Shown piece by piece: positions 4,450 to 34,299 of a stretch of DNA of 64,000 bases. The DNA is taken from contig CAVVYZ010000017.1 in NCBI GenBank assembly GCA_963752595.1, positions 96,001 to 160,000 on the forward strand. The letters run 5' to 3'. Within the stretch, counting starts at the first letter, position 1. Every line of letters begins with the position of its first letter. The position numbers and the translations under genes were made by a program. The notes beneath the pieces are model-generated. The model saw only the letters and a list, made by a program, of their open reading frames with translations, had not been told where the DNA came from and made no database searches. The stretch comes from an uncultured delta proteobacterium (lineage in GTDB: Bacteria > Desulfobacterota > Desulfomonilia > UBA1062).

Positions 4450-5088
4450 ATGGGAACTATACCGGTTTTTTTCCACGCTATCCGCATCGATATGCCTGCC
4501 CGCGCCGTTTACCGGCGACTCGGCTATCAGAAAGGGAAGACGGAGATCACCCGGGAGCAGCGCTCGGAGATCGAAGCAACCTTAGGCGATGCGGTATCCC
4601 TCGTCGAGCTGAAGGGATCCGCGGTTCTGATCCCTGTCAGGGAGCAGGGTGCAGGGCAGATCCTTCTGGATACAGGCGAGCTTCTCAAAAGCGCATCCCT
4701 CTTAAGGATGCTCGAAGGATCGACCGAGCTCCTCCTCATGGGAGCAACGGCCGGAAACAGGGTTATGCAGGAGATCAGCCGGGATTCGAAAAGCGGTAAC
4801 CTGACCCGTGCGATTTTGCTCGATGCAGTGGCGAGCGAGATGACCGATAAAGCCCTTGACTGGATAGCAGAGCACATGGGCAGGGAATTGAGGCGGCAGG
4901 GAAAAGGAATCACGCACAGCCGGTTCTCCGCAGGGTACGGGGATTTTGAACTGGAGAACCAGAAGATCATGTACGAGCGTTTGCAGCTTCAGGAGATCGG
5001 GGTGAAGATAACGGACTCATGCGTCCTCGTGCCGGAGAAGTCGGTTACGGCGGTTGCAGGCGTCCGTGTCGGCGAATTCGAGCGATAG
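4450..5088 (+). CDS. stand-alone methionine synthase activation (SAM-binding) domain
   Basis: LLDAVASE, RFSAGYGDF, LVPEKSVTAVAG; directly upstream of a MetH lacking this domain; start uncertain (4363 or 4450). Confidence 0.85.
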   Translation: MGTIPVFFHAIRIDMPARAVYRRLGYQKGKTEITREQRSEIEATLGDAVSLVELKGSAVLIPVREQGAGQILLDTGELLKSASLLRMLEGSTELLLMGATAGNRVMQEISRDSKSGNLTRAILLDAVASEMTDKALDWIAEHMGRELRRQGKGITHSRFSAGYGDFELENQKIMYERLQLQEIGVKITDSCVLVPEKSVTAVAGVRVGEFER

Positions 5089-17469: not shown

Positions 17470-17495
17470 AAGAAAAAAGTAAGAGGAGGATGTGT

Positions 17496-18698
17496 ATGGA
17501 TTTCGAAATCCCGGATAAGATCAAGGTTATCACTGATATGATCAATGAGTTCGTCGACAAGGAGCTCATTCCCCTGGAGCCGGAGTTCGTCACCAAGGAA
17601 TTCAGGAACATGGTCCCGGTGCTGGAAGAGAAGCGGAACATGGTCAGGCAGATGGAGCTGTGGGGGCCGAACCACCCGAAAGAACACGGCGGCATGGGGC
17701 TCGAACCTGGTGGAGCATGGCCTCGTTTCCGAAGCCCTGGGCCGGACTCCCCTCGGGCATTACGTGTTCGGCTGCCAGGCCCCGGACGCCGGCAATATCG
17801 AGATCCTCCACCTTCACGGCACGCCGGAGCAGAAGGAGAAATACCTGAAGCCCCTGGTGGCGGGAAAGATCCGGAGCTGCTTCTCCATGACCGAGGTGGA
17901 CATGCCGGGATCGAACCCGGTCATGATGGAAACCACGGCGGTCAAGGACGGCGACGACTACGTCATCAACGGCCACAAGTGGTACACCACGGCCGCCGAC
18001 GGCTCGAAGTTCGCCATCGTCATGGCGGTGACCAATCCCGAGGCGCCGACGTACCTGCAGGCGAGCATGATCATCGTGCCCTGCGACACGCCCGGCTTCA
18101 ACCTGGTGCGCAACATCCCGGTCATGGGCCAAGCCGGCAGCGACTACGCCAGCCACGGCGAGATACTCTACCAGAACTGCCGCGTGCCGCAGAAGAACCT
18201 CCTGGGCACGGAAGGGCATGGCTTCGTCATCGCCCAGGAGCGGCTCGGACCCGGGCGGATCCACCACTGCATGCGCTGGCTCGGCATCTGCAACCGCTCC
18301 TTCGACCTCATGTGCACGCGGGGCAACGAAGCGGATCATCGCGCCGGGCGGCAAGACCCTGGCCACGCGGCAGATCATCCAGGCCTGGGTGGCCGAATCC
18401 GCGGCCGAGATACAGGCGGCGCGGCTCATGACCCTGTACGCGCCTGGCGGATCGAAAGTCGGGGCCAAGGAGGCCCGGGACGACATCTCCATGATCAAGT
18501 TCGTGGTGGCCAACACCATGCAGCACGTGGTCGACCGGGCCCTGCAGGTCCACGGCGGCCTCGGCATGACCGACGACACGATCATTCGCCTTTTTCTACC
18601 GCCACGAGCGGGCGGCGCGGATTTACGACGGCGCCGACGAGGTGCACAAGATGTCCCTGGCCAAGCGGATCCTGAAGCGGTACGAGAACGGCAAGTGA
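17496..18698 (+). CDS. acyl-CoA dehydrogenase, ACAD10/11-LvaC-like (several frameshifts, probably sequencing errors)
   Basis: Pieces in three frames: MDFEIPDK..., CQAPDAGNIE, SCFSMTE, INGHKW, AQERLGPGRIHHCMR, DRALQVHGG.G, RIYDGADEVH. Confidence 0.85.
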
Positions 18699-18722
18699 GA
18701 AAGGCAAAGAGAGGGATGCCGT

Positions 18723-19403
18723 TTGAATTTCGAGACCTTCAAGGAGCGGTCATGCTCTCCGTGGAGGAGATCTGCCGGGAGCTCCTGGCGAAAACCGCGA
18801 CCGCATCAAGATCAAGAAGGAAGACGTTGCGGTCAAGAACCTGGTGACCATCGTCGAAGCGGCCCTGAGCTCAGCAATGAGAAGGGCTTTGACGCCATGA
18901 GCCTGCGGGACCTGAGCAGCGAATCGGGCCTGAGCATGGGCGCCCTGTATTCCTAATTTCGAGCAAGGAAGACCTGCTGACATGATCCAGCACCAGGGCA
19001 GATCGTTGATATTCAAGGTCCTGGGCGAATATCTGAAGGACATCGAGGACCCGGGGCAAAGCTCGAGCAGGCCATCCAGACCCATCTCTACCTGAGCGAG
19101 CTCATGCAGCCCTGGTTCTATTTTTTCTACATGGAGACCAAGAACCTGCGAAAGAGATACCAGAAGATCGCCATAGAAGCGAGCTGTTCACCGAGCAGAT
19201 CTTCACCGACATCCTCGAGGAAGGCATCACAAGGGCGTATTCCGGAAGGTAAACCCTCAGCTCGGTTAGCCGCCATCAAGGCCATGATCCAGGACTGGTA
19301 TCTGAAGCGGTGGAAGTACGAACGGCGAAAGGTAACAGTGGAGGAATACGCAGGATTTATCATGGACTTTGTTTCATCCTATCTCATGAGAAAGGTACAA
19401 TAG
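18723..19403 (+). CDS. TetR/AcrR family regulator (frameshifted)
   Basis: HTH KGFDAMSLRDLSSESGLSMGALYS; C-terminal KAMIQDWYLKRWKY; multiple indels. Confidence 0.75.
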
Positions 19404-19409
19404 GAAGGG

Positions 19410-20488
19410 ATGTCTTACATGGATCTTCAACGACAAGGCAGCTAGCGTCAGACAGGGCGAAGAGCTGGATACGGGAAAGGTCGGGGAATATCTTAAGAGG
19501 CATACATTCCCGGCCTCGCCGGAGAAATGGCGGTTAAGCAGTTTCCCAGCGGCTACTCCAACCTGACCTACCTCATCAAGGTGGGGAACACGGAGCTGGT
19601 GCTGAGGAGGCCTCCTTTCGGCAGAAAGGCGAAAACCGCCCATGACATGGGCAGGGAGTACCGCATCCTGAAGGCCCTGAACCCGGTGTTCCCTTACTGC
19701 CCGAAGCCGCTGGTCTACACCGAAGACGAAGCCGTCATGGGATGCCCCTTCTACGTCATGGAGCGGATCCAGGGCATCATCCTGAGAAAGAACCTCCCAA
19801 GGGCTTGATCTTCAGCCCTGGACAGATGCGGACGCTCTGCGAGAACCTGCTGGATGTGCAGTACGAGCTTCATTCCATCGATTACAAAGCCATAGGTCTG
19901 GAAGGGTTCGGCAAACCGGAAGGATATGTGAAGAGGCAGGTGGAAGGATGGTCCGAGCGTACCGGGCGGCCCGGACCCCGGATGCGCCGGACTTCGAGGA
20001 TGTCATGCAGTGGCTCCATGACAGGATGCCGCCTGATTCTCCCCGGCCTGCCATCATCCACAACGACTACAAGTTCGACAACGTGGTGCTCGACCCGGAG
20101 AACCCCCTGGAGATCATCGGGGTGCTGGACTGGGAGATGGCGACCATCGGCGATCCGCTCATGGACCTGGGCAGCTCGCTCGGATACTGGGTCCAGAACG
20201 ATGACCCTCAGGATTTCCAGGCAGTCGCGGATGCTCCCCACGAATCTTCCGGGAGCCCTCACCCGGCAGGAGATGGTGAAGCGCTATGCCGCAAAGGCAG
20301 GCATCGCCATCGACAATTTCGATTTCTATCTCTGCTTCGGCCTGTTCCGGCTCGCGGTCATCCTCCAGCAGATCTACTACCGGTTCTATCACGGCCAGAC
20401 CAAGGACGAGCGTTTCAAGATGCTGATCTTCGCCGTGCACATCATTGACGGGATGACGAAAAAGATGATCGAGCAGTCCTTGCTGTAA
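19410..20488 (+). CDS. APH/choline-kinase-like phosphotransferase, LvaA/ACAD10-11 kinase-like (frameshifted)
   Basis: QFPSGYSNLTY, LVLRRPP, AHDMGREY, IIHNDYKFDN, VLDWEMATIGDPLMDLG, FRLAVILQQIY. Confidence 0.85.
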
Positions 20489-20526
20489 GCAATTATTAAT
20501 GAACAGAAAAATTGAGGAGAGACGGT

Positions 20527-21290
20527 ATGGAAAAGGTAGATTTCAGGCTGAACGGTAAGGTCGCGCTGGTGACCGGGGCGAGCAGGGGTATCGGAGAGGC
20601 CATAGCCATTACCTTGGCAGATTACGGGGCGCACTGCATCCTGGTGAGCAGAAAGGAAGATGCCCTGAAGAGGGTTGCGGAAAAGATCGCTTCCCGGGGA
20701 GGCAAGGCCGATGTGATGGCCTGCCACGTGGGGGACCTCAAGCAGATCGAGGCGCTCTTCCAAAGGTCAGGGAGCGGTTCGGAAAGCTTAACATCCTCAT
20801 CAACAACGCGGCCACCAATCCCTATTTCGGCGAGATGCTGGGCGCCGACGAAGGGGTATGGAACAAGACCTTTGACGTGAACCTCAAGGGCCCGTTCTTC
20901 ATGATCCAGAAAGCGGCCAAGCTCATGATGGAAGCAGGCGGCGGCTCCATCGTGAACGTCTCCTCCATCAACGGCATCAAGCCGGCGCCTTTCCAAGGGA
21001 TCTACTCCATCACCAAGGCAGGCCTCATCTCCATGACCATGGCCTTTGCCAAGGAGCTCGCCACAAAGAACATCCGGGTGAATGCACTGCTGCCCGGTCT
21101 GGTGGACACGAATTTTTCCAAGGCCATCATGGAAAACGACATGATCTATGACTACGCGGTCAAGATGATCCCCATGGGCAGGCATGCACAGCCCATGGAG
21201 ATAGCAGGGGCTGTGCTCTACCTGGTTTCGGATGCCGCCCCTTTCACGACCGGAGCATGCATGGTGGTGGACGGCGGTGCCCTGGCATAG
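20527..21290 (+). CDS. SDR family oxidoreductase (frameshift near 20765)
   Basis: VTGASRGIG, NNAATNP, YSITK, NALLPG. Confidence 0.85.
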
Positions 21291-21365
21291 ACTGAACGAC
21301 GTGCCTGCAAGGGCAGGAGGGCCTTCATCAACACTTGTCCGAAAATCTTCTGAAGGAGGTTTTAT

Positions 21366-22283
21366 ATGAACGTATCTGATATCAGGCGTGTCCTCATCCT
21401 GGGAGCCGGCACCATGGGCCAGCAGATCGGATTCATGTGCCATGCACGGATATGATGTGGTGATTATGATATCTCCCAGGAGGCATCCTGGACAAGGCGC
21501 TAAGAGGATGAGAAAGCTCGGCTCCTGGTATCGTCTCCATCGGCCGGATCACCAGGAGCAGCTAGACGAGATACATGAAGAGGATTTCCGCCACCGCAGA
21601 TCCCGCAAGAGGCGGCCCGAGACGTTGATTTCATCAGCGAGTCCGTGCCGGAAGACCCGGAGATGAAGGGCAAGATATTCGCACAGTTCAACGAACTCTG
21701 CCCGGAGCGGACCATCTTCACCACCAATACCTCCATGCTCATCCCCTCCATGTTTGCCGAGGCAGACGGGAAGGCCTGATAAATTCTGCCGCCCTCCACT
21801 TCCACGACCTGCGGATACCAACGTCGTGGATGTCATGCCGCATCCCGGGACGGCACCGGAAGTGGTGGAGCTCGTCCATGATTTTGCCAGGAGCATCGGC
21901 CAGATCGTCATCATGCTCCACAGGGAAAACAACGGCTATGTTTTCAACACCATGCTTTCGAGCCTCTTCTTCTCGGCCCTGACGCTTGCATCGAAGAACG
22001 TAGCATCCATCGAAGACATCGACCGCTCCTGGATGGGGGTCATGCACACGCCCATCGGCCCCTTCGGCATCATGGACCAGGTAGGGCTGTCCACCGTCTG
22101 GACCATCACCGATTACTGGGCAAAAAGGACGCCGATAAGCAGGCCCAGGCGAATGCCGATTTTCTGAAAGGATACGTGGATAAGGGGCTCCTGGGCTTTA
22201 AGACCCGTGAAGGATTCTATACCTATCCGAACCCTGCATATGCCGATCCCGGGTTCCTTACCGGCGAGAGAAAAGCAAAATAA
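21366..22283 (+). CDS. 3-hydroxyacyl-CoA dehydrogenase (frameshifted)
   Basis: ILGAGTMG, ESVPEDP, TTNTS, GYVFN, GPFGIMDQVGL, GFKTREGFYTYP in shifting frames. Confidence 0.8.
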
Positions 22284-22619
22284 GAAAGAAGAGGGCCGGC
22301 TGCAGGCCATCTCATTTTAATACTCGCATTTCCTCATTTCTGGGGTAGCCAATTCACGAATAGCGGCCCATGAGTATAAATATCTCATAAAGGCCGGTCG
22401 TACTGTGAACAATTTATTCATTAATTCCTACTTCAGTATAAAAGGATGCAGAAGAGTTGTAAAATGACTTCCCAGGCGGTTCTAGGGGTGGTAATATATG
22501 GCAAAGATCTGCTAGCATTATACGGGTGACACGGGCAGCTGATAAGAAAATCCACCCGGTAGTGCAGATGGTCTCATGAAAGGCAAAGTACAAATACATG
22601 AACACCAAGGAGATGCACC

Positions 22620-23704
22620 ATGAATACACCTTATGATGACCTAATGAGGTTTTTTGGTACGGCTCTGTACAGTGGAACGCCTGAATGGGCTACACCGAAC
22701 TATGCGATCTATGAAGACGATGCTGTAGTACTGAGGAGATTCGACACGGATAGGACGGGTGATCCGATTATCATTGTTCCTCCTCAGGCAGGGCATCACT
22801 CCAGCATCGCCGATTATTCACCCGATCACAGTCTGGTAAAAACATGCCTGCAGGAGACAACGAAGCCTGTCTATGTGATCGAGTGGAAGGCAAGCACTCT
22901 CAAAAGAAAAAACGAGACCATTGACGATCTTGTGAAACAAACGATGGTCTGTGTGAAAAAGGCAGGCTCAGGTAGGCCGGTTACCCTTGCCGGGCTGTGC
23001 CAGGGAGGATGGCTCGCGACGATTTATGCAGCTTTATTCCCCTATGATGTCAAAGCCCTCATTCTTGCAGCCTCTCCCATAGACTTCACCGCGGGCGGTG
23101 GGAAAATACAGGACATCGTAAGCACCCTTCCTTTCTGGTACTATAAGTACATGGTAGACTGTCACGGCGGAAACATGTCCGGAGATGTCATGCTGATGGG
23201 CTGGAAAATCATGAACTCCTATGACAGATTCATTGGTGATTACCTGAATCTCTGGATCAACGTACAGGATGACAGCTTCCTGGAAAGAACGAGGAGATTC
23301 CGCCGCTGGTATGAATACACCCAGGATTTGTCCGGGAAATGGTACCTTGAGGTAGTGAAGGATCTTTTCATGGAAAACAAGCTGGTTATGGGTACCTTGA
23401 AGGTTCTCGGCGAATGCGTGGACCTCAAGAAGATTACCTGTCCCTTGGCATTACTGGCAGGGGAAAGGGATGATATTACGCTTACTCCGCAGGTTCATAA
23501 CATTGAATACTTTGCATCGACGCCCAAGGAAGATATTTTAAAGTGGTAATTCCCAAGGCCGGGCATATCTCTGTCTTCATGGGCAAGCGGGCTCTCCAGT
23601 ACGAGTGGCCCGAAGCGTTGAGCTTTATCGAGAGCGCAATGTCCCATGAAACGGGCACAGAGCCCTCACCTGATACCAGGGGATACAAGAAAAAAGCAGC
23701 CTGA
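22620..23704 (+). CDS. Cys-nucleophile alpha/beta hydrolase, intracellular PHB depolymerase (PhaZ)-like; frameshift near 23540
   Basis: IIIVPPQAGHHS, GLCQGG, SPIDF, AGERDDIT; the catalytic GH (IPKAGHISVF) continues in another frame to TGA at 23704. Confidence 0.65.
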
Positions 23705-23740
23705 AGACAAATAACGGGAAGGATTTAAAGCAGGGATTTG

Positions 23741-24217
23741 TTATTTCCTGCCTTTATCCTTCCCGCTTTGCTCCTGCGAAGCCCCACCGAAGAAGGACCG
23801 GAAAGATGACATATCCGAGAATGTCTTTCGGGCAATATTCGAGTAGTCGAGCTGCACATCAATCCATTTGCTGAATTGCTCGTCCGCTACTTTCTTGAAC
23901 TGGAGGTAGCTGTCGATGATCTGCTGCAGGTATTTCTCAAAAAATTCCTGCAGCACGGTTTCTCCATAGCGGATGATCAGATGGAGAAGTCCTGCCGGAA
24001 GCAGGGCATTCTTATTTCTGGCCTGCTCAAGGATAATCTGGGTAAGAATATATGCGGTCACATCTTCTTTCGTGTTTGCATCGATCACTTCGACCTCGAT
24101 GCCCTGCTTGATCATATCTGCAACCTCGTTTACGGTGATATACTTACTCCTGGCTGTATCGTATAACCGCCTGTTTCCATATTTTTTTAAAAGCAGCTTA
24201 TCCCTGTTTGCCGTCAT
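23741..24217 (-). CDS. phaR: polyhydroxyalkanoate synthesis repressor
   Basis: KKYGNRRLYDT..SKYIT, VIDANTKEDVT..ILTQIILE, LHLIIR. Confidence 0.9.
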   Translation of the reverse strand: MTANRDKLLLKKYGNRRLYDTARSKYITVNEVADMIKQGIEVEVIDANTKEDVTAYILTQIILEQARNKNALLPAGLLHLIIRYGETVLQEFFEKYLQQIIDSYLQFKKVADEQFSKWIDVQLDYSNIARKTFSDMSSFRSFFGGASQEQSGKDKGRK

Positions 24218-24472
24218 GGACGCCTCTATTCCCTCTGCATTGTGTCGCTGAGCATGTAATCTCCGGAAATGTGACTCCGGGCATCGTGAACATAAAAAAG
24301 AACATTATAATTATACATTAGATAGAGACGTACCATGAACGTATGTTACCATGCAACAAAAAAATCCTTTTAAGCCGCATTATAGATCGAAAAGCATGGC
24401 CAATCCAATTAAAAATATAATAAAATAACTAGGTAATAAATTAATCAGTCACATTTCATCAAAGTGAATAAA

Positions 24473-24524
24473 TTGTTGCATTGCAATAAATCAACCTTGA
24501 CAAAACAGCAGGTGATCCTATTAT
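24473..24524 (+). promoter_or_regulatory. putative PhaR operator TTGTTGCA-T-TGCAATAA followed by sigma70 promoter TTGACA-N16-TATTAT
   Basis: Palindrome 24473-24489 with TGC-N3-GCA core; -35 at 24497-24502 and -10 at 24519-24524; similar site TGTTAC-CAT-GCAACA at 24344-24358. Confidence 0.6.
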
Positions 24525-24570
24525 TGGATTGAGATTAACATTTCAGAAAAATATGAAGGGGGATTTGGAG

Positions 24571-24849
24571 ATGGATATGAGGACAATCATGTTACAGATG
24601 ATTGATTTGCAGAAGGCCTCCTTTGACAACGGATATGAAGCCATTGTCACGGTACAGGACCAGACAGAGAAAGCAGCCAATACCTTAATGGGTCAGGCGG
24701 CATGGCTTCCTTCAGAAAGCAGGGGCGTCCTGAAAGAGTGGTTCGGGATGCTTAAGAAAGGCAGAGAAGATTTCAAAAAGGTCTTTGATGAAGGATACGA
24801 TCATATAGGGGGATATATCAATTCAGCATCCGGCAGCTCTCTGCGCTAA
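24571..24849 (+). CDS. small helical phasin-like protein, paralog 1
   Basis: QMIDLQKASFDN...QDQTEK...KKGREDFKK; aligns without gaps to paralogs 2 and 3; PHA context. Confidence 0.7.
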   Translation: MDMRTIMLQMIDLQKASFDNGYEAIVTVQDQTEKAANTLMGQAAWLPSESRGVLKEWFGMLKKGREDFKKVFDEGYDHIGGYINSASGSSLR

Positions 24850-24889
24850 AGAGAATTTACATGAGTTCATAACGAAAAAGGAGGAAGAT

Positions 24890-25246
24890 ATGGACCAGAA
24901 AACAATGGTTAAGCAGGCGTTTGATTTTCAGAAGAATACCTTTGACAATTTCTATAGTAGTCTGGTGACTCTCCAGGACCAAGCGGAGAAATCCGTCAGC
25001 TTCTTCTTGGACAGAATGCCGTTGATGCCGGAAGAAAGCAAGAACGTGTTCATGGAGTGGAATAAAATATACAAGAAAGGCAGGGATGATTTCAAAAGGG
25101 CAATGAATGATGGATACGAGAAGATGGAGTCTTATTTCGTAACCACTGCCCAGGCAACTCAGCAGGCTGCGCAGCAGGCTACCAGATCTGCTACTGAGGC
25201 AGGAAAGAAGGCTTCCGAATCCAGCAGGCAGGAAGGTAAATCATAA
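24890..25246 (+). CDS. small helical phasin-like protein, paralog 2 (Q/A/T/S-rich tail)
   Basis: SD AGGAGG; QAFDFQKNTFDN...QDQAEK...KKGRDDFKR. Confidence 0.75.
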   Translation: MDQKTMVKQAFDFQKNTFDNFYSSLVTLQDQAEKSVSFFLDRMPLMPEESKNVFMEWNKIYKKGRDDFKRAMNDGYEKMESYFVTTAQATQQAAQQATRSATEAGKKASESSRQEGKS

Positions 25247-25281
25247 ACACGAAAAGATCAGCCCTTGCACCTACGGCTGTG

Positions 25282-25323
25282 AAAGCCTTTGCGTCCAAGA
25301 TAACTTGACGGCAAAGGCTTTTT
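25282..25323 (+). terminator. intrinsic terminator
   Basis: AAAGCCTTTGC...GCAAAGGCTTT stem followed by a T-run after paralog 2. Confidence 0.75.
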
Positions 25324-25795
25324 GTACAGGTTACCGTGGTTGCCCGAGGAAAGGATGCAGGAGGCGATGATCCGTATTTGTACTATGATAGCGCCTGTGG
25401 CATATTATAGGTATTCGCGGGTTTCCCTCCTGAGGGACAGGGGATATGAACCGGGAAATGGCAATACTTCAGAGAAGTGTTTTTTATCCTTTGTCCCGCA
25501 ATGCCACATGCGGTGATTTGTCCGGACCCGGATGTTTTTTCACAAGGTTGTTTCTGATTCAATCAAGGACCGCATATCTTCACGCCGGCAAAAGATGAAA
25601 ATACCCTGCCATTAGGATTGTCGGTTCTTCATGATCCGTTATTATATAATGCAGGCGTGCTGTGAAGAAATCGCTGGAAACCTGGCAAGGATTGTCACAA
25701 AGATTCCTCCGATGATGCCTCGATTGTATCCCGGGACATCCGCAATAGGGGTAAGGAATGGCAATAAAAAATCTTTAGCATGAAGGTGGAGAATC

Positions 25796-26071
25796 ATGGA
25801 CCAGAAAGATTTGGTAAAACAGATGATTGATTTTCAGAAGACGTCGTTTGACAACAGTTTCAATGCCATGAAAATGGTTCAGGAACAGACGGAAAAAATT
25901 ACCGACACCTACGCAGGCCAGGCAAACTGGATCCCCGAGGACGGGAGAAAGCTTATCACCCAATGGATCGGTGCATACAAGAAAGGCCGGGATGACTTCA
26001 AGAAGGTTGTCGATGACAACTTCAAAAAGGTTGATGAGTATTTCAGCACAGGAGATAAGGCAAAGAAATAA
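25796..26071 (+). CDS. small helical phasin-like protein, paralog 3
   Basis: QMIDFQKTSFDN...QEQTEK...KKGRDDFKK. Confidence 0.75.
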   Translation: MDQKDLVKQMIDFQKTSFDNSFNAMKMVQEQTEKITDTYAGQANWIPEDGRKLITQWIGAYKKGRDDFKKVVDDNFKKVDEYFSTGDKAKK

Positions 26072-26104
26072 CAAGACGATACGTCTTTTCTACGGTGGAA
26101 GCCG

Positions 26105-27685
26105 ATGATAGGTAGCTTGAACCATTTCCCCGAACAATATGGGGCTTTTGGGGAAGCTTCTTCGATGCTTGGTGATATCTTTCCAAAGCTATTCAGGGCT
26201 TATGCCGAGAGCGTAAAGGCCTCGCAGGTATATGGAGAAGGCGTGCAGAGGTATTTTCAGGACTTCAATGAAGCCTTTCTGATCGCGGTTGGTGATTTCG
26301 AATCAGTGGAAAGAAAAAATATCCTGAAGGCCCCTCCGGATGAAACCATGAGGGAATACGGCCAACTGCTCCTCATGAATCTCAAAGTTGCAGAAAAGGC
26401 GATGAGGGCCAGTGGTGCAACCGTAATGGAATACCATCTCCCGAAAGCCGGTGATGCTTTTGATGCCTGGTTGAATACCATATTCGGAAGGGAAGGGGAG
26501 GACATTGATGCCTTTTTCTCAGAGCAGGCTCGCCTTCTTGAACGGGTAGTGTACGAGTACCCCAAAGCTATCCGTGCAATCAGGGAAGAATACGGGTTCC
26601 ACTTTGACCGGAGCGGATATGTCAAAGCCGGGGAAACAGATAGATTCGATCTCTATCAGGTTTTGCCCACGCATAAGGACGTATCGGTGCGGAAGAATGG
26701 GAAGCCGGTCATCGTGGTCCCTCCGTTCGTTCTGGGTACGAATATCCTCGCCTTTCTCCCCGGCGATGACAAGAGTTATGTACACGCTTTTGCAAATCAT
26801 GGAATCCCCACGTACATCCGGGTTGCCAAGAATATTTGGACCACGCCTTCCTTTCAGGTGATGACCGGCGAGGATGATGCGAGGGATACAAAGCATTTCT
26901 GTGAAATCGTGAAGAAAAGGCATGGGAAAAATGTCACCCTCAACGGATACTGCCAGGGAGGATTTTCATCGCTGTGCAACATCCTCTCAGGCGAGCTTGA
27001 CGGTCTGGCCGACACCCTGATCACCTGCGTCTCTCCCATGGATGGGACCAGGAGCCCGGGGCTTGCCTCCTTTTTGAAATCATTGCCGCCCAGGTTCAAT
27101 GACCTTGCATACGGGACGAAGACTCTCCCGAACGGCAACAAGGTGGCGGATGGAAAGCTCATGGGATGGGTGTACAAGCTCAGGGCAATTGAAAACGAAT
27201 ACCCTCTGGTGGATTTTTACCGGGATATGGTGATGCTTTCCGCAGACGGAAGCTCAAAAGGTCGATTCAATAAGACAGCCCTGGCCATAAAATACTGGCT
27301 CGCCTATGAGCGGACCGACCTCCCTCTCCCCATCACGAAGATGAGTTTCAATTCTTATAATATCCCCATTACCAGGGACGGTACACTCCCGGTCCGCCTT
27401 TTCGACAGGAAGCTCAATCTCAAGGGCATCCCGGAAAAGGGGGTGAAGTGGCTCATAGCCTATGGGGAAAAGGATGATCTCGTGGAAAAGGAGACTGCTT
27501 TGGCGCCTCAGGATTATATCGAGGTGGAAACGACCGAGTTCCCGAAAGGACATCTCGCCATTGCAACGTCCTGGTCCAATCCCAAGACGGAATACGCTCT
27601 CGACAAGCGGTTCGGAAAGAATAACCAGCGCGGGCCGGTTCTGTTCCAACTGGAAATAGATCAACAGGCCAAAGGAGAAAAATAA
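26105..27685 (+). CDS. divergent PHA synthase-like alpha/beta hydrolase
   Basis: PVIVVPPFV...IL, lipase-box GYCQGG, VSPMD, YGEKDDLV (Asp), KGHLAI (His); long helical N-terminus. Confidence 0.65.
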   Translation: MIGSLNHFPEQYGAFGEASSMLGDIFPKLFRAYAESVKASQVYGEGVQRYFQDFNEAFLIAVGDFESVERKNILKAPPDETMREYGQLLLMNLKVAEKAMRASGATVMEYHLPKAGDAFDAWLNTIFGREGEDIDAFFSEQARLLERVVYEYPKAIRAIREEYGFHFDRSGYVKAGETDRFDLYQVLPTHKDVSVRKNGKPVIVVPPFVLGTNILAFLPGDDKSYVHAFANHGIPTYIRVAKNIWTTPSFQVMTGEDDARDTKHFCEIVKKRHGKNVTLNGYCQGGFSSLCNILSGELDGLADTLITCVSPMDGTRSPGLASFLKSLPPRFNDLAYGTKTLPNGNKVADGKLMGWVYKLRAIENEYPLVDFYRDMVMLSADGSSKGRFNKTALAIKYWLAYERTDLPLPITKMSFNSYNIPITRDGTLPVRLFDRKLNLKGIPEKGVKWLIAYGEKDDLVEKETALAPQDYIEVETTEFPKGHLAIATSWSNPKTEYALDKRFGKNNQRGPVLFQLEIDQQAKGEK

Positions 27686-28273
27686 TGGAAAAAAACCTCT
27701 TTGAACTCTGGGGGAACACCTTCTTGACTGCTGCAAGAGGACAGAAGCAGATGGAGGATACTGCCAAATGGATGAAAGGCGGATTCTGCGAAATCCCGGA
27801 CATGAGCGATATGCTGGGCAGCCTCACCGGAATCAACGCGATAATCTCAAGTTCCACGGAATACCTCAAGATCCTTAACATGGCGAGTGAAAACTTTCAT
27901 GAAATCATTCAAGGAATATTTGTCTATGATGGATCTTGTCCCCAAGAAAGACTACGATTCTCTTCTTGAAGAATTCGAAGGTCTCAAAAAACGCACCGAA
28001 GAAAAGAGCTCAAAGAAAGTCGATAAGCTCTTGAACGAAGAACTCTCTCTCCAGACACAGAGCTTGCGAAGCTTTGAAGAATTAATGAGAAATCAGACCA
28101 GGCAATTTCAGGATTTAATGACCAATTTTACGAAGTTCATCAGTCAGACGAAAACCCGCCCTTCCAAAGAGGGCTCGAGCGGACAGGAAGAAAAGAAGAG
28201 TGCCCCGGCCCGGAAAAGGCCCCCGGCTTCTTCGAGTAAAAGCCCATCAGGCGCTACGGGACCGAAGAAGTGA
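27685..28273 (+). CDS. helical hypothetical protein, PhaE-like (frameshift near 27895)
   Basis: TAATG coupling to the upstream gene; ORFs 27685-27969 and 27887-28273 join with one base removed; YLSMMDLVPKKDYDSL...LKKR coiled coil; K/S/P/A-rich tail. Confidence 0.5.
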
Positions 28274-28325
28274 GGAAACAAACATATCCCATGGCCGAGA
28301 GGAAGCCTTAACGGGTAGGGGGAAT

Positions 28326-28754
28326 CTATTTCTTTTGTGCCTTGGGAGGGCTTACCAGTGCCTGGCCGTCAAGCACAACCTCACCGTTCTGGTTTGAGCA
28401 TGTAGTATTCAGGATTACCCGATTCTTCTCCGTATTAAGTTCCGATACCTCAACTCTGGCTGTAATGGTATCTCCGACGCGGACCGGAGCAAGGAAATTG
28501 AGTTCCTGTCGTATATAGATTGTCCCGGGCCCCGGAAGTTGCATTCCGATAGCAGCCGATATGAAGCCTGCCTGGAGGATTCCATGAGCGATGCGTGTCT
28601 TGAAAAAGGTGTTCTTGGCATACTCCTCATTGATATGGGCCGGATTGAGGTCGCCGGTGAGGCCGGCAAACAGGTAGATATCGGATTCCGAAATCGTTTT
28701 CGTAAACTCTGCAAAATCACCTGTCCGGATCTCGGTTATGGTTTTTCCGAGCAT
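28326..28754 (-). CDS. phaJ: (R)-specific enoyl-CoA hydratase, MaoC family
   Basis: FAGLTGDLNPAH, RIAHG, LPGPGTIY, FLAPVRVGDT. Confidence 0.88.
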   Translation of the reverse strand: MLGKTITEIRTGDFAEFTKTISESDIYLFAGLTGDLNPAHINEEYAKNTFFKTRIAHGILQAGFISAAIGMQLPGPGTIYIRQELNFLAPVRVGDTITARVEVSELNTEKNRVILNTTCSNQNGEVVLDGQALVSPPKAQKK

Positions 28755-28847
28755 AAATCTCTCCTTTTTGTGTGACCAATCAACGTCCTCGTCACTCCAT
28801 AAGAAATGAAGTTATGATCAGCGGTTTGTTTCTGCTATAGACAGGGC

Positions 28848-29900
28848 TCAAAACCAGGAACGGTGGCTCCACATGTCTTCCTTGAGCTCTTTGAGATCCT
28901 CCTTGAGCATAAGTACACACGATGCATTCTGAATAGCCAAACCTCCCTGATGAGCAATGGCAGTGGCGAGCATTATTTCATCTTCGGAAAACTTTCTGGG
29001 GGAAGCGCTGTAGAGCCTTAAAACTCCGATAACCTCATCCATTGCCTTTATGGGAACACAAAGGATGGATGCGATCCCCTCCTCTTTTTTTTCTTTTTTA
29101 TACTGTACCCCGCCTGCCCGGGATGCATCTTCTATCAGTACAACCTTTCCTTTCAAGGCTTCGGCCATACTTTTCTCTGCAGAAACAGTACCCTTACTGA
29201 GGTATTTCTCACTCAGGCCGAAACTCGCTATCAGCTGCAACGTCTGTTTTTCATTATCGAGGAGTCGTACCGATGCAGCCTTTAATCCGAAGGCATTGGC
29301 CACGTTTTCGGTCAGGATCTCCATGATATTTTTAAGATCGAGATTTGAATTCATGCCTACTGCGAGATCGTGGAACAGCTCGGTATTCTTTCGGATCTGC
29401 TCTATGAGCCTGGAATGCTCGATAGCTATCCCGCCCTGTTCGGCCAGCGCGGTGAGGAAGCTTATTTCATTGTCTGAGAACCTTCTTGGATCAGAGGTGT
29501 ACAGCGAGAGAAGCCCGATTACCTCATTGTTGACCATGACAGGAACGATAAGGATTGATGCAACGCCTTCGGCCTTTTTGATATCATGATGCTGTACTCG
29601 TGCATCGGTGGTAGCATCATGGATAGCGATGTATCCCTTGCGAAGTATTTCTTTTGCTGCCCGCACGGCCTCTTTGGGCTCAATGTGCAGATAATTCTTC
29701 GATAAGCCTTTTTGAGCCAAAGGAAAGAAAAGCGGGCTCTTTGTGTCATTATCCTGCATAAAAAGACAGGCAGCCTTACCATCCATGGTTTCGATGGCGC
29801 TTTGGACGATCAGATCCAGCAATTCTTCCTTTTCAAGGGTGGTCCCGAAGGCCCTGCTCACCTTGCAGATCGTTAAAAAATAGCTTTCTTTTTCCGGCAT
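28848..29900 (-). CDS. tandem GAF-GAF protein without output domain
   Basis: Two internal repeats: GLSKNYL...EGVASILIVP...VIGLLSLY...RRFS and GLSEKYL...EGIASILCVP...VIGVLRLY...RKFS. Confidence 0.85.
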   Translation of the reverse strand: MPEKESYFLTICKVSRAFGTTLEKEELLDLIVQSAIETMDGKAACLFMQDNDTKSPLFFPLAQKGLSKNYLHIEPKEAVRAAKEILRKGYIAIHDATTDARVQHHDIKKAEGVASILIVPVMVNNEVIGLLSLYTSDPRRFSDNEISFLTALAEQGGIAIEHSRLIEQIRKNTELFHDLAVGMNSNLDLKNIMEILTENVANAFGLKAASVRLLDNEKQTLQLIASFGLSEKYLSKGTVSAEKSMAEALKGKVVLIEDASRAGGVQYKKEKKEEGIASILCVPIKAMDEVIGVLRLYSASPRKFSEDEIMLATAIAHQGGLAIQNASCVLMLKEDLKELKEDMWSHRSWF

Positions 29901-31100
29901 GGCTCATCTCCTCAGTTCTTTTGGTGCTCGAAGATCTTTTCTTCAATGAAGAAGTCGCCCGTATCCGGGTCGAGTTCTTTCTGTTTTGGCTGATATGATG
30001 CGCAGGTTCGTACCGGTCTTCGCGTTCTTTAAGCCACTGGATGATTTTGGGAGCAAATTCCTTCTGCGTCTTACTGCTGACATAGATACCGATATGGCCG
30101 GTATCGAGGCATACATTTTCGGTGTCCTTGCTTCCCACCACACTGGTGATCTGTTCAGCAGCTCCGGGGGGCACAAGATGGTCGTACTGGCCATAAATAT
30201 TGAGAAGCGGCATGGTGATATTCTTCAGATCCACCCGCTTGCCGCCGACCACGAGCTTGTTCTGAATGAGCAGATTTCTCTGGTAGCAGTCCTTGACGAA
30301 CTGTCGGAAGGTCTCGCCCGGTACATCAGGGCTGTCGAAAATCCATTTTTCCATGCGGATAAAGTTTTCGACAAATGCCTTGTTGTCCATGTTCTCCATG
30401 AAACCCACGTATTTGTCGATCATCAGTCGTGCCGGATTGAGGAGCAGAAATCCGAAATTCATGAGGTCCCCGGGCATGTTCCCGAAGGTGTCGATCACCT
30501 GGTCCGGATCCATCGCATTTCATCCAGACATGCAGCAGGCCCTGGTCGGTGTCGAAATTGGTCGGGGTAGACCGTCGTGATAAGGTTCTTGATCTTGTTC
30601 GGGTGCAGTGCGGAATAGATGACGGAGAAGGTTCCTCCCATGCAGATGCCCATGAGATTGATCTTGCTCGACCTTTGCCGCTTCCGGATGAAGTTTACGA
30701 TATTGTCCATGTACCCATTGACATGATCGTCGATGGTAAGGAACTTGTCCTTTCGTGTAGGGTATCCCCAGTCAATCATATATAGATTGATGCCGTTTTC
30801 CTGAAAGCTCTTTACCACACTCCTCTCCGGCTGGAGATCGAGCATGGTTTCCCGGTTGATGAGGGCATAGACGACAAGGAGAGGCGTTTTGATGTCATCA
30901 GGGGATGTGCGGGTAGGAGAATAATACTTTAATTTAACACGATCTTCTTCATATATCGTCTCATACGGGGTGGTGGCAATTTCGGTGTTGAGGTTGCTCA
31001 GGAGTATATCAGAGGCCTTCTGAGCCCGCACATGGGCACTCTCTGCCTCCTCGGCAAGGTGCTTTATAATCATATCGACAGGAATTACCGGTTTATCCAT
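29833..31100 (-). CDS. phaC: class III PHA synthase catalytic subunit (two 1-nt insertions, ~30569 and ~30517; true stop may be nearer 29905)
   Basis: PLLVVYALINR..LDLQP, IDWGYP, GICMGG, RMEKWIFDSPD, YDHLVPP, TGHIGIYVS. Confidence 0.9.
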
Positions 31101-31116
31101 GGTTTCTCCTTTGCTG

Positions 31117-32007
31117 CTATTCCTTCCCGTTCACCTTTTCAAGCTCCCTGACTTTCTTTTTCAGCAGGTACACCTCTTTGTAGAGGTCGTCCATTTCCTT
31201 GCTCGTTGGAATGGGATAGGTCTGGAGCATGTCCTGTATGATGTCGTTGCGGGCTCCAAGATAGTCCTCCAGCGCAGCCATCGTTTTACTAAAGGTTTTA
31301 TTGTACTCTGATGATTGAAAGAGGGTCATGAAGTGGCCTTCAAGTGTTTTCACCCACATCCGGTAATACTCTCTGGAATCCCCAGGGAGTTTCCCCGCTT
31401 TTGTGAGCACCTCAATTTTTTCGTGCATCATCTTGTTGGTTTTTTCAAACGGCATTTGGACCAGCTGAAGGAATTCGGCAAGGGAAGTTGCAAATAAGTT
31501 ATATTTATCCAGAGCTTGATTGATTTTCTCTTGATGGTATCTGTTCAAGCCAAGCTGGGGTATATTGAAGTAACGTCTGATTTCGCTCTTGTAAATGTTC
31601 GACCAGGTCTGGAGAGTTTCCTGGTCAAGATTGTCGAAGCTGTACGGCTCGGAGCGCGAACCCAGTTTCCCGACTTTCTCGAAGGCTTGCTTCTGAAGGG
31701 TAAGGAATGCATTCACCCCGGATTGGAGAAAGTTCGAGGTTATATCGGGCAGTACTGCAATTCCTCGAAATGCGGCATCCATAGCAGACGGTTCACCCAA
31801 TGCGGTGGATATGGCGGTGAATGATTTGAGGCCGGAGAGGAAAGCATCCTGCAAAGCGTGCCCGTTCTCTTTTTTTGGAGTGGTATTTCCTGTTGAGTTC
31901 TGACTGTTCTGTCCGGAGCCTGACTTTACCCAGAACTGATTTGCAGCCTTCAGCCATTCTGAGATCAATGTCTGCTGGTCAGGAATAGTTTGTTCTTTGT
32001 TGTCCAT
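31117..32007 (-). CDS. phaE: class III PHA synthase subunit PhaE
   Basis: PQLGLNRYHQE, YRMWVKTLE, SSEY, IPTSKEMDDLYKEVYLLKKKVREL; directly upstream of phaC. Confidence 0.88.
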   Translation of the reverse strand: MDNKEQTIPDQQTLISEWLKAANQFWVKSGSGQNSQNSTGNTTPKKENGHALQDAFLSGLKSFTAISTALGEPSAMDAAFRGIAVLPDITSNFLQSGVNAFLTLQKQAFEKVGKLGSRSEPYSFDNLDQETLQTWSNIYKSEIRRYFNIPQLGLNRYHQEKINQALDKYNLFATSLAEFLQLVQMPFEKTNKMMHEKIEVLTKAGKLPGDSREYYRMWVKTLEGHFMTLFQSSEYNKTFSKTMAALEDYLGARNDIIQDMLQTYPIPTSKEMDDLYKEVYLLKKKVRELEKVNGKE

Positions 32008-32271
32008 ACCTTACCTCATGGGCAAAAAGATGTACAGGGATTAGTTCCACACCACACTCCAGCCAAAGGAAAATTCGAGATCAAATATCATACAAAAAGA
32101 GTAAGGGCTCTGTTCTGTTTTTCAATGGATGAAAGATGATCGATGTTGAGAAATTTGAAGGTATTCCAAAAAGGAAGCATGAATGAAAAAAAGGATAAGC
32201 AGTCGAAGACAGTCGACAAAAGTACCTTGACAAAGAAAATGTAGTTGCTTATATGGGTAGGGTGTTTTTGG

Positions 32272-32346
<75 letters not shown>

Positions 32347-32454
32347 AACTTTTACTTTAGTCTTTCTTGGAAAGATAAACCTCCCTTCGGCAATATCATT
32401 TCTTGCACGAACCTTGTGGTCCTGTGCCTCATATCATTCGTCAGAGATAGTGGC

Positions 32455-32493
32455 AAAAAAAGCCTTGCGGCGCATACCGATCCGCCGCAAGGC
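32455..32493 (-). terminator. intrinsic terminator for asnS (possibly bidirectional)
   Basis: 11-bp stem GCCTTGCGGCG/CGCCGCAAGGC preceded by A7 on the plus strand. Confidence 0.8.
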
Positions 32494-32542
32494 CGCGTAC
32501 TTCTTTACTTCTGAGCCCTCAACCCATTCCTTCTTGCCCCTC

Positions 32543-33838
32543 TTACGGATATGCGCGATAGATCATCCTAGGGAACGGAATGGTTTCACGTACATGCTTG
32601 AGCCCGCAGATCCATGAGAGGGTCCTCTCGATCCCGAGGCCGAACCCGGAATGGGGGACGCTGCCGTACTTTCTCAAATCGAGATACCAGCCATAGCGCT
32701 CCGGCTCGAGATTATTGTCCCGTATTGCCTGAATAAGCTTGTCGTAATCGTCCTCGCGCTGAGATCCGCCGATGATCTCCCCATATCCTTCCGGCGCCAG
32801 CAGGTCGGCGCACTTGACATACTCGGGTTTGTCCGGGTGCTGCTTCATGTAGAATGCCTTGACCTTCTTGGGGTAGTTCTCGATGAAGATGGGTTTGTCG
32901 TAGAGGCTCGTTATGATGGTTTCGTCATCTCCCCCGAGGTCGGCCCCCCACTGGATGTCCGAGCCGTTCTTCCGGAGGAGTTCTAACGCCTCGTCGTAGG
33001 TGATTCGATTGAAAGGCGGCTTGACCTTTTTCAAAGGCTCAAGATCTCTCTCCAGGGATATAAGCTCTGCTTCCATCTCTGCAAGGGTGTTCTGGACGAT
33101 GTACGAAACAAAGTCCTCCTGGAGTGCGAGATTCTTGTCATGATCGAAGAACGCCATCTCGGCCTCGACCATCCAGAACTCGATGAGGTGCCGGCGCGTC
33201 TTGGATCGTTCCGCTCTGAATGTGGGGCCCAAGCAGAAGACCTTCCCCAGCCCGAATATGGCAGCCTCGAGGTAGAGCTGGCCGGTCTGGGAGAGGTATG
33301 CCTTCCCGAGGTCGAAGTAATCGACCGAAAACAGGCTTGAGGTATCCTCGCCGCAGGTGGTGGTGAATATGGGCGAGTCGATCAGGGTGAAGCCGTTTTT
33401 ATGGAAATATTCCCTGACATGCCGTACCAGCGCGTCCCTTACCCGCATGATGGCAGTCTGTCTGCTTGATCTGAGCCAGAGATGGCGGTTGTTCAGGAGA
33501 AAGTCCGGGCCGTGCTCCTTCTTTCCGATGGGAAACTCCTCGGACTTGTGAACGATCTCTACCTTTGTTGCGTTCATTTCATACCCGCCCGGCGATCTGG
33601 GCTCTTCCCGTACCGTTCCCTGAACGATCACGGACGATTCAATGGGGATCTTCTTGATTTCAGGATAGATCTCCTCGCCCATGACTTCTCGTTCCGCAAT
33701 GACCTGGCAGATACCGCTTCCGTCCCGGATAATGAGAAAAGAAAGCTTGCCGCTGGACCTCCTGTTGGAAACCCATCCCTTGATGATGACCTCTTCTTCC
33801 GTATGTTTGGAGAAGTCCTTGATGAGACATTCTATCAT
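32543..33838 (-). CDS. asnS: asparagine--tRNA ligase
   Basis: OB fold, RHLWLRS, FRAERSKTRRHL.EFWM.E, GEIIGGSQRE, PHSGFGLGIER. Confidence 0.96.
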   Translation of the reverse strand: MIECLIKDFSKHTEEEVIIKGWVSNRRSSGKLSFLIIRDGSGICQVIAEREVMGEEIYPEIKKIPIESSVIVQGTVREEPRSPGGYEMNATKVEIVHKSEEFPIGKKEHGPDFLLNNRHLWLRSSRQTAIMRVRDALVRHVREYFHKNGFTLIDSPIFTTTCGEDTSSLFSVDYFDLGKAYLSQTGQLYLEAAIFGLGKVFCLGPTFRAERSKTRRHLIEFWMVEAEMAFFDHDKNLALQEDFVSYIVQNTLAEMEAELISLERDLEPLKKVKPPFNRITYDEALELLRKNGSDIQWGADLGGDDETIITSLYDKPIFIENYPKKVKAFYMKQHPDKPEYVKCADLLAPEGYGEIIGGSQREDDYDKLIQAIRDNNLEPERYGWYLDLRKYGSVPHSGFGLGIERTLSWICGLKHVRETIPFPRMIYRAYP

Positions 33839-33945
33839 ATCGTCTTATCAGCCTCCTTTGCCTGTGAACGTTCATAACGTATTAGCCATCTTGAATCAAC
33901 TACAAACAATTGATTCTTTGCAAGCATAGTGCTATCTCTTGCACT

Positions 33946-34299
33946 ATGAATTTCGGATATAAAATTTGGATCGAAAAGGACGGGAATACGGTTTTCGGGA
34001 TGGGGATCTTCAGGCTCCTGACCCTTGTAGCGGAGACAGGGTCATTGCATAAGGCTGCCCAGGAACTCAAGATGTCTTATCGTGCAGCATGGGGAAAGGT
34101 CCGGGATTATGAAGAAAGGCTCGGGATAGGCCTGCTTGAAAAGGGAAGGCACGGCAGGACCGGCGCCCACCTGACTCAGGAGGGTCAGCAGATCATGACC
34201 CGCTTCAAGGATATCCTCAAAGAGGTGGATAAGACCCTTACCGCAGACCCCATCGCAAAGTTGATAAACAATATCGGACATGTCGATCCGACCGCGTGA
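33946..34299 (+). CDS. ModE N-terminal-like winged-helix regulator
   Basis: KIWIE...FG.G...LL...TGSLHKAAQELKMSYRAAW...GA.LT. Confidence 0.85.
   Translation: MNFGYKIWIEKDGNTVFGMGIFRLLTLVAETGSLHKAAQELKMSYRAAWGKVRDYEERLGIGLLEKGRHGRTGAHLTQEGQQIMTRFKDILKEVDKTLTADPIAKLINNIGHVDPTA

Follow-up and report, generated by a model that had tools for sequence, protein, structure and literature searches.

Polyhydroxyalkanoate (PHA) synthases are described as being grouped in four classes. The described systems closest to the locus analyzed here are the class III PhaE/PhaC synthases of the Allochromatium vinosum type, the class I PhaC enzymes, the PhaZ and DUF3141 proteins and, on the side of regulation, the PhaR-phasin regulons of Cupriavidus necator, Paracoccus denitrificans and Bradyrhizobium diazoefficiens. 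In Desulfococcus multivorans, a class III PHA synthase was reportedly described by Hai and colleagues in 2004. We analyzed a PHA locus at positions 22620-32007 of a 64,000-nucleotide (nt) stretch (hereafter the window, meaning the whole stretch) of contig CAVVYZ010000017.1 from an uncultured delta proteobacterium, whose genome is designated G000. Besides an ordinary phaE-phaC pair, this locus contains a gene for a protein of 526 amino acids (aa), p526, followed by a small partner gene, E2. With a probability of about 0.5, p526 and E2 form a fifth class of PHA synthase, which is so far confined to Desulfobacterota, is isolated in sequence from classes I-IV, would be able to act as the sole polymerase and would share its control by a PhaR box with a new phasin family. 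The two genes are as follows:

26105-27685, plus strand: p526, a predicted PhaC-fold enzyme with a GYCQGG box and Cys283/Asp457/His483 (AlphaFold2, AF2, model), intact in the window
27685-28273, plus strand: E2, a small coiled-coil partner gene with weak likeness to the PhaE C-terminus and phasin families, broken by an extra T at 27895

Compared with the class III system, to which the phaE-phaC pair of the window itself belongs, p526-E2 is similar in that a Cys-Asp-His catalytic subunit is followed by a small coiled-coil partner with a PhaE-like C-terminal motif. The catalytic subunit differs by its length (526 aa), by three additional helices that form an N-terminal domain and by a TIGR01836 score of only 24.7 bits; the partner differs as well, as E2 has approximately 160-200 aa versus 296 aa for the PhaE of the window and falls below PF09712. 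The phaC subclade of the window also departs from the described type by a basic C-terminal extension and an overlapping GAF-GAF gene. With class I PhaC, p526 shares a similar length and a helical N-terminal part ahead of the catalytic domain, and its best structural matches are the class I enzymes of Aeromonas caviae (9KNL/9KNJ/9KNK), Chromobacterium sp. USM2 (5XAV/6K3C) and Cupriavidus necator (5T6O/5HZ2). However, the identity in these structural alignments is 13-17%, p526 matches neither PhaC_N nor TIGR01838, and it usually has a separate small partner gene.

At least 2089 homologs of p526 were found, all without a Pfam family and annotated as 'metal transporter', 'hypothetical' or, in one case, 'class III PhaC'; the family profile reaches 339 of 1.84 billion representatives at E<=0.001. 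The AF2 model of p526 (pLDDT 85) comprises three long N-terminal helices (residues 8-72, 78-127 and 134-161) and an alpha/beta-hydrolase domain. When this model was used as a Foldseek query, ranks 1 to 13 were all PhaC chains (E 2e-11 to 1e-9), with lipases next (1e-6). In VIA-align, the seven best entries were likewise PhaC (Z 24.0-26.2, root-mean-square deviation 3.3-5.8, 306-348 aligned positions), followed by gastric and lysosomal lipases (Z 20.9-21.5) and then by Bacillus thuringiensis PhaZ (Z 17.1-17.3). Residues G281, C283, Q284, G285, G286, D457 and H483 are invariant among 26 homologs, and the triad residues follow model strands 277-282, 448-454 and 475-479, that is, they occupy the nucleophile elbow, the post-strand-7 and the post-strand-8 positions. 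Because of the PhaC structural matches and the invariant Cys-Asp-His at canonical positions, p526 is read as a catalytically equipped member of the PhaC fold that is unrecognised by curated synthase models; the PhaC-type fold itself is predicted with good confidence. Judged by the curated models, p526 does not belong to PHA synthase classes I-IV, and it is thus predicted to be a PhaC-fold enzyme outside the four classes.

The lipase matches raise the question of whether p526 acts on some other thioester or lipid, for example as a neutral-lipid acyltransferase or a lipase, with its position in a PHA locus reflecting shared precursors only. The gastric and lysosomal lipases are its next-best structural matches (Z 21), and the annotations 'metal transporter' and 'hypothetical' provide no tie to PHA. 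Nevertheless, in most loci p526 is tightly linked to phaR and small-protein genes behind a PhaR-type box, the GxCxGG box is common to p526 and PhaC, and a thiolase and a reductase adjoin p526 in those loci where it stands alone (see below). We therefore regard a different substrate as very improbable.

The start of E2 overlaps the stop of p526 by 1 nt, both in the window and in the closest relative (genome G004, which served as the intact reference for the genes of the window), and an E2 open reading frame (ORF) starts beside p526 in 62 of 73 testable cases. The E2 proteins have 155-212 aa and contain a coiled coil as well as two motifs, FLEFWGN, which is conserved in the N-terminal part, and 'VPK..E' in the centre. 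Matches to phasin families are all below threshold (11 of 34 members for TIGR01837 and 8 for Phasin_2), and TIGR01834 is absent among the 25 families listed; by the PF09712 and TIGR01834 models, E2 is not classified as a member of the PhaE family. Two tandem E2 genes occur in some loci of a set comprising L062, L063, L065, L071, L085, L089, L093, L038 and L040, and several Desulfococcaceae-type loci of the same set have an extra small paralog after E2.

To place p526 in its phylum, an even sample of 401 genomes from 255 genera was used, in which p526 is present in 21 genomes and 18 genera. Fifteen of these 21 carriers have a class III PhaC (14 above the cut-off, and G000, in which the gene is split by frameshifts), three have class I PhaC genes that adjoin p526, and three are without a canonical PhaC, although in one of the latter the contig stops just after phaJ. 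Within a single family (f76), p526 is accompanied by no canonical synthase, by class I or by class III. It follows from this variable pairing that the p526 cassette is the constant part.

Genomes in which p526 appears to stand alone carry most weight with regard to function. Five genomes, four of them from one genus, were found to have p526-E2 with class I/III PhaC undetected. In this genus (g133), p526 is present in four of nine genomes, and TIGR01836 and TIGR01838 have matches in none of the nine at E<=1e-5. G190 and G278, two lone-p526 genomes that are each 99% complete, also show no PhaC_N, PHB_depo_C or DUF3141 match. The locus of G190, G451, G453 and G278 reads thiolase - GNAT - phaR / sp - sp - p526 - E2 - SDR, where sp denotes the small paralogs described below and SDR a short-chain dehydrogenase/reductase, and a patatin-like gene lies near it in three of these genomes. 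By gene content, the lone loci correspond to phaCAB-type clusters with p526-E2 in the phaC slot. A synthase is favoured over a depolymerase here, because a depolymerase would have little purpose beside phasins, PhaR and precursor enzymes if no polymerase were present. On this ground and on that of the modeled fold, we consider the odds to be somewhat better than even that p526-E2 is a PHA synthase of an undescribed class.

The alternative under which p526-E2 would mobilise the polymer deserves to be set out in full. Intracellular PhaZ-type depolymerases also use a Cys nucleophile, and thiolysis of poly(3-hydroxybutyrate) by such an enzyme is on record. Accordingly, p526-E2 might be a granule-bound mobilising enzyme, either a hydrolytic or a coenzyme A (CoA)-dependent thiolytic depolymerase, whose synthesis would accompany that of the coat proteins after polymer has formed. 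A canonical synthase is usually present alongside p526 (15 class III and 3 class I cases among the 21 carriers), the operon and its PhaR-box promoter are shared with phasin-like genes, and the catalytic Cys and recorded thiolysis just mentioned would suit such an enzyme. Against this view stand the five genomes that have p526, a thiolase and a reductase with class I/III synthase undetected. Moreover, other loci already have a PHB_depo_C, DUF3141 or patatin gene that possibly serves breakdown, and p526 is structurally nearer to PhaC (Z 24-26) than to the sole solved PhaZ listed (Z 17). A depolymerase is thus rather unlikely in our view, and a synthase remains the preferred reading.

Several observations weigh against p526-E2 being a fifth synthase class. 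At the level of sequence, p526 has no Pfam family and no match to PhaC_N (PF07167), TIGR01838 or TIGR01839; its 24.7 bits on TIGR01836 compare with a cut-off of 365.3; a PDB sequence search with its profile returned 0 matches; and the hhalign probability between the p526 and phaC groups is only 36.6. The likeness of fold, predicted as it is, cannot tell a synthase from a depolymerase or a lipase, since lipases are found at Z ~21. As for the partner, hhalign of E2 against the phaE group gives a probability of 22.5 over 60 columns at the C-terminal motif, PF09712 is matched by 2 of 34 E2 members below threshold (best E 0.02), and those p526 loci that are linked to class I genes have no E2. A canonical PhaC is present in 18 of the 21 p526 carriers, and p526 could therefore be an accessory enzyme. 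The five genomes in which p526 stands alone are assemblies of uncultured organisms; four belong to one genus, and two are only 73% and 81% complete. Finally, should PhaR be a repressor of the operon, synthesis could never begin where the only synthase lies behind a PhaR box.

The operon that contains p526 begins with small paralogous genes, which are divergent from phaR. The corresponding features of the window are listed here:

23741-24217, minus strand: phaR, PHA-responsive regulator (PHB_acc_N, PF07879, 90.3 bits)
24474-24488, no strand assigned: candidate PhaR box, a TGC-N3-GCA palindrome with core TGCATTGCA at 24477-24485
24497-24524, plus strand: promoter-like site TTGACA-16-TATTAT before sp1 (11/12 consensus matches)
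24571-24849, plus strand: sp1, small paralog of 92 aa counted from the ortholog-matching Met (amphipathic z = 4.0)
24890-25246, plus strand: sp2, small paralog of 118 aa with a Q/A-rich tail (amphipathic z = 4.5)
25282-25323, plus strand: hairpin and U-run, a likely intrinsic terminator after sp2 (RNA fold)
25796-26071, plus strand: sp3, small paralog of 91 aa (amphipathic z = 4.6; AF2 two-helix model)

The proteins sp1-sp3 share 36-60% identity with family members of other loci and are strongly amphipathic, with hydrophobic-moment z values of 4.0-4.6; the AF2 model of sp3 (pLDDT 90) is a two-helix hairpin with helices at residues 3-42 and 48-89. At least 655 proteins, all free of Pfam domains, belong to their family; most are named 'hypothetical', and some have been automatically named 'polyhydroxyalkanoate synthesis regulator phasin' (one source). 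Curated phasin models (Phasin_2, Phasin, PhaP_Bmeg, TIGR01837 and TIGR01985) give sub-threshold matches in at most 2-3 of 36 sp members, and none of sp1-sp3 of the window matches a phasin model at E<=0.01. Foldseek with the sp3 model yielded nothing at E<=0.001, just generic helical hairpins, and hhalign did not connect the small proteins with E2, PhaE, PhaR or p526. An Atlas lookup with sp3 led to unnamed clusters, one of which carries the automatic name phasin; among clusters with Pfam families, the nearest (Phasin_2, PHB_acc, PhaP_Bmeg) reach only 0.80 and are leads only.

The phaR product scores 90.3 bits on PF07879 (cut-off 25) and 103.3 bits on TIGR01848, just below the cut-off of 109.45, and is accordingly assigned a PHB_acc_N DNA-binding domain on the strength of the profile match. 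Ten bases 5' of the -35 element before sp1 lies the palindrome TTGTTGCATTGCAAT, and TTGACA-16-TATTAT is the best promoter-like site of the region. Among the 29 phaR-sp intergenic regions that could be extracted, TGCA.TGCA occurs 19-21 nt ahead of TTGACA in 21, versus 0.035 in shuffles, and the remaining eight have TGC-N3-GCA variants at the same position; CTTGACAA is kept in 23 of the 29. The lone-p526 loci show the same arrangement of box and promoter. In G453 (L108, approximately 4720-4770), a second TGCA.TGCA box and a CTTGACAA promoter precede the patatin-like gene, which is a candidate member of the same regulon.

PhaR sites have been described as TGC-rich or as GCN3GC (PMC10888616, PMC3570403), which the TGC-N3-GCA box resembles, and the divergence of phaR from genes for small amphipathic proteins of the abundant type is a further likeness to the PhaR-phasin regulons. 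The locus differs from these regulons in that its small proteins match no phasin family consistently, the box is located 5' of the -35 element and not over the promoter, and the operon also encodes an enzyme. Since amphipathic hairpins are encoded divergently from phaR and downstream of a TGC-N3-GCA box and a promoter that are both conserved, a phasin-like role fits, and sp1-sp3 are likely to be phasin-like in the functional sense, as candidate granule coat proteins under PhaR control. With the box 5' of the -35 element, PhaR may either repress or activate, which matters where p526 is the sole synthase candidate.

The hairpin after sp2 is also visible in G004, and a strong hairpin with a U-run is found in this genus; the fold of 25240-25345 has -36 kcal/mol (z = -3.67), with 0 of 200 shuffles as good. 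The spacer between sp2 and sp3 is approximately 550 nt long and poorly conserved. A separate RNA element in this gap was considered and set aside, the gap not being conserved among nine relatives.

A model in which p526-E2 is a synthase would run as follows. (R)-3-hydroxyacyl-CoA would come from PhaJ and the nearby reductase and would be polymerised by PhaEC as well as by p526-E2; the small-protein/p526 operon would be under the control of PhaR, acting at the box; the small hairpin proteins would form a granule coat in the manner of phasins; the GAF-GAF protein may modulate PhaEC; and hyd360, a PhaC-like hydrolase encoded upstream of phaR, would fill the depolymerase slot. In a limited literature search, p526-E2, the small hairpin family, the PhaR-box promoter and the phaC-tied GAF-GAF gene were not found described. 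If the synthase reading is true, bioplastic engineering would gain an additional class of enzyme that brings a partner subunit and coat proteins of its own. PHA capacity would also have to be assessed differently in the genomes of sulfate reducers and syntrophs, in which the gene is labelled 'metal transporter' or 'hypothetical', and some lineages would have been scored as PHA-negative although they are possibly polymer makers. For the regulation of carbon storage in strict anaerobes, handles would be offered by the conserved PhaR box and by the GAF-GAF protein, which goes with one phaEC subclade.

The remaining genes of the locus are the phaE-phaC module on the minus strand and hyd360:

22620-23704, plus strand: hyd360, PhaC-like Cys-Asp-His alpha/beta hydrolase with a GLCQGG box, broken by a 1-nt deletion (TIGR01836 134.7 bits)
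28326-28754, minus strand: phaJ-like MaoC dehydratase (MaoC_dehydratas, PF01575, 80.6 bits)
28848-29900, minus strand: GAF-GAF protein without an output domain (GAF_2, 132 bits in two stretches)
29833-31100, minus strand: class III-type phaC with a GICMGG box and a basic C-terminal extension, carrying two 1-nt insertions (TIGR01836 halves)
31117-32007, minus strand: phaE (PHA_synth_III_E, PF09712, 68 bits, cut-off 25.7)

An earlier note on this DNA, made from the sequence alone, had described the region as one contiguous block with a particular order and orientation of genes and with three Cys hydrolases. The ORF listing and family scans confirmed the order and strands across 22620-32007, and all three boxes that it named (GLCQGG, GYCQGG and GICMGG) were found. 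Its assignments of class III PhaEC, PhaR and PhaJ hold as well, the phaE-phaC pair being a class III synthase of the ordinary kind, from a Desulfobacterota subclade. The note had further supposed an undescribed granule system. This stands in so far as no unnamed gene maps cleanly to a curated PHA family, and does not stand for the synthase pair, PhaR and PhaJ, which are ordinary.

We then asked how general this arrangement is. A scan of one genome per species yielded 547 loci encoding a p526 relative, and the best 80, which are those most like the query, were analyzed with profiles built from close relatives; more distant loci may differ. These 80 loci contain small-paralog genes in 74, E2 in 68, phaR in 67, phaC in 57 and phaE in 56 cases. 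Among the 31 loci that are flanked by 6 kb or more on each side, the counts are 28 for phaC, 28 for phaE, 28 for the small paralogs, 27 for phaR, 26 for GAF, 25 for E2 and 23 for phaJ. The co-occurrence check suggested in the earlier note was thus run, and the unnamed genes do accompany phaEC, with both phaC and phaE in 28 of the 31 well-flanked loci. Its picture of a locus 'expanded' in one organism does not hold, as the locus joins two modules, phaE-phaC-GAF-phaJ and phaR/small proteins-p526-E2, which are both recurrent, conserved and linked in many Desulfobacterota. In genomes without p526 (L116 and L118-L121), the neighbours of class III phaEC include weak ORFs of sp-like and E2-like type (20-53 bits), which may be distant relatives of the two small-protein families.

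Within the first module, phaE lies directly upstream of the phaC that bears the GICMGG box, so that a GxCxGG box and an adjacent phaE are both present. The two halves of the split phaC in the window score 185 and 223.6 bits on TIGR01836, each below the cut-off of 365.3, and the intact G004 ortholog scores 435.7 bits, above it. The start of the GAF-GAF gene is located 68 nt inside the 3' end of phaC. Among loci without p526, a GAF gene comes after phaC in 5 of 6 that belong to this PhaC subclade, compared with 0 of 6 in the other class III subclade. The gene thus belongs to the phaEC module and not to the unnamed enzyme, which corrects the suggestion that it encodes the sensor of the unnamed system. 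The phaJ product is, by its domain match, a MaoC-like hot-dog dehydratase of putative (R)-specificity.

As regards hyd360, the label 'phaZ-like' was not borne out. The intact G004 ortholog is nearer to class III PhaC (TIGR01836 133 bits) than to PhaZ (TIGR01849 58.2 bits, cut-off 300.75), both scores being below cut-off, and hhalign of hyd360 against the phaC group gives a probability of 99.8. hyd360 resembles the PhaZ (TIGR01849/PHB_depo_C) and DUF3141 proteins in occupying the same slot upstream of phaR and in exceeding both Pfam cut-offs. In the window, hyd360 scores 134.7 bits on TIGR01836 (cut-off 365.3), 74 on DUF3141, 34.7 on PHB_depo_C and 44.5 on TIGR01849; the PHB_depo_C score of the G004 ortholog is 50.8, above the Pfam cut-off. 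However, a bona fide PhaC also passes the PHB_depo_C and DUF3141 cut-offs, and these matches therefore do not decide the role. hyd360 is present in 12 of the 80 related loci, and the slot upstream of phaR is occupied in other lineages by a PHB_depo_C protein (~480 aa) or a full-length DUF3141 protein (~750 aa); it is from this position alone that we infer a mobilising role for hyd360. The genome has a second hyd360-like paralog at G000:C1:227423-228379 (TIGR01836 153.7 bits, 368-aa open frame), and at G000:C20:195219-195677 an 806-aa open frame has a weak PhaC-like C-terminal part.

Three PHA genes of the window are interrupted by single-base indels, a point that the earlier note had missed. 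Judged against all four relatives aligned, phaC has single extra bases near 30567 and 30515 and reads as two ORFs (30495-31100 and 29833-30513); E2 likewise reads as two (27685-27969 and 27887-28273), owing to one extra T at 27895. The hyd360 ORF (309 aa, 22620-23549) ends ahead of the catalytic His, which is found in another frame (23537-23704) after a 1-nt deletion at approximately 23536. In G004 the orthologs of hyd360, E2 and phaC are intact (360, 195 and 421 aa). These four indels in three PHA genes could be real mutations, in which case the locus would be decaying and phaC, E2 and hyd360 would be pseudogenes. An independent freshwater-sediment run, however, provided a 176-nt contig that is identical to the window except that base 27895 is missing, which restores the E2 frame as in G004. 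This check covers and contradicts one of the four frameshifts (27895 only); the two phaC indels and the hyd360 indel are uncovered by independent contigs, which counts on the side of decay.

Other evidence counts against decay. The orthologs of the broken genes are in frame in all of G004, G001, G003 and G021, and between the two phaC insertions the shifted, third frame still gives the conserved peptide. Indels of the same kind affect unrelated genes across the window: tblastn matches of G004 ORFs in multiple frames were also found at 17.5-18.7, 19.3-20.5, 20.7, 34.7, 39.45 and 52.2 kb. Frame is lost and regained within single genes while the in-frame parts stay conserved, as in the 3-hydroxyacyl-CoA dehydrogenase gene (21366-22280), which does so several times, with in-frame blocks alternating with stops. 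In addition, the assembly consists of 31 contigs, yet is only 84% complete. Because the indels are spread over the window and one is absent from an otherwise identical independent contig, they are very probably assembly errors and not signs of decay, and the organism likely has all of these genes intact; decay of the locus is accordingly improbable.

The 5' neighbours of the locus, named by means of their intact G004 orthologs, are an acyl-CoA dehydrogenase gene, APH-type kinase-like genes and the genes for a short-chain reductase and a 3-hydroxyacyl-CoA dehydrogenase, the last two being located as follows:

20515-21287, plus strand: short-chain dehydrogenase/reductase, PhaB-like candidate, frameshifted (the window matches the G004 ortholog in two frames)
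21366-22280, plus strand: 3-hydroxyacyl-CoA dehydrogenase, repeatedly out of frame (the G004 ortholog matches 3HCDH_N and 3HCDH)

The G004 ortholog of the reductase scores 221 bits on adh_short_C2, and an SDR of the PhaB-like kind is present in 23 of the 80 related loci. The frame shifts are extreme in these five kilobases 5' of the locus: at 17475-22280, single-base indels relative to G004 are numerous in all of the genes named, from the acyl-CoA dehydrogenase and APH-type genes to those for the reductase and the 3-hydroxyacyl-CoA dehydrogenase. Within this region, the window seems to have only one stretch (19268-20479) that matches both APH-type genes of G004 (430 and 359 aa), which may reflect a deletion or a collapsed repeat. 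On the other side of the locus and beyond, frame changes at approximately 34750, 39450 and 52240 relative to intact G004 ORFs of 437, 883 and 176 aa fit assembly-wide indel errors.

The GC content is 0.41-0.51 at 22000-34000 versus 0.55-0.63 in the flanks. A low-GC island or recent insertion was considered and dropped, as synteny with G004 continues through both borders. An Rfam search of the locus returned nothing besides a tRNA gene (32272-32343, plus strand, 69.3 bits), which is located between phaE and an asparaginyl-tRNA synthetase gene.

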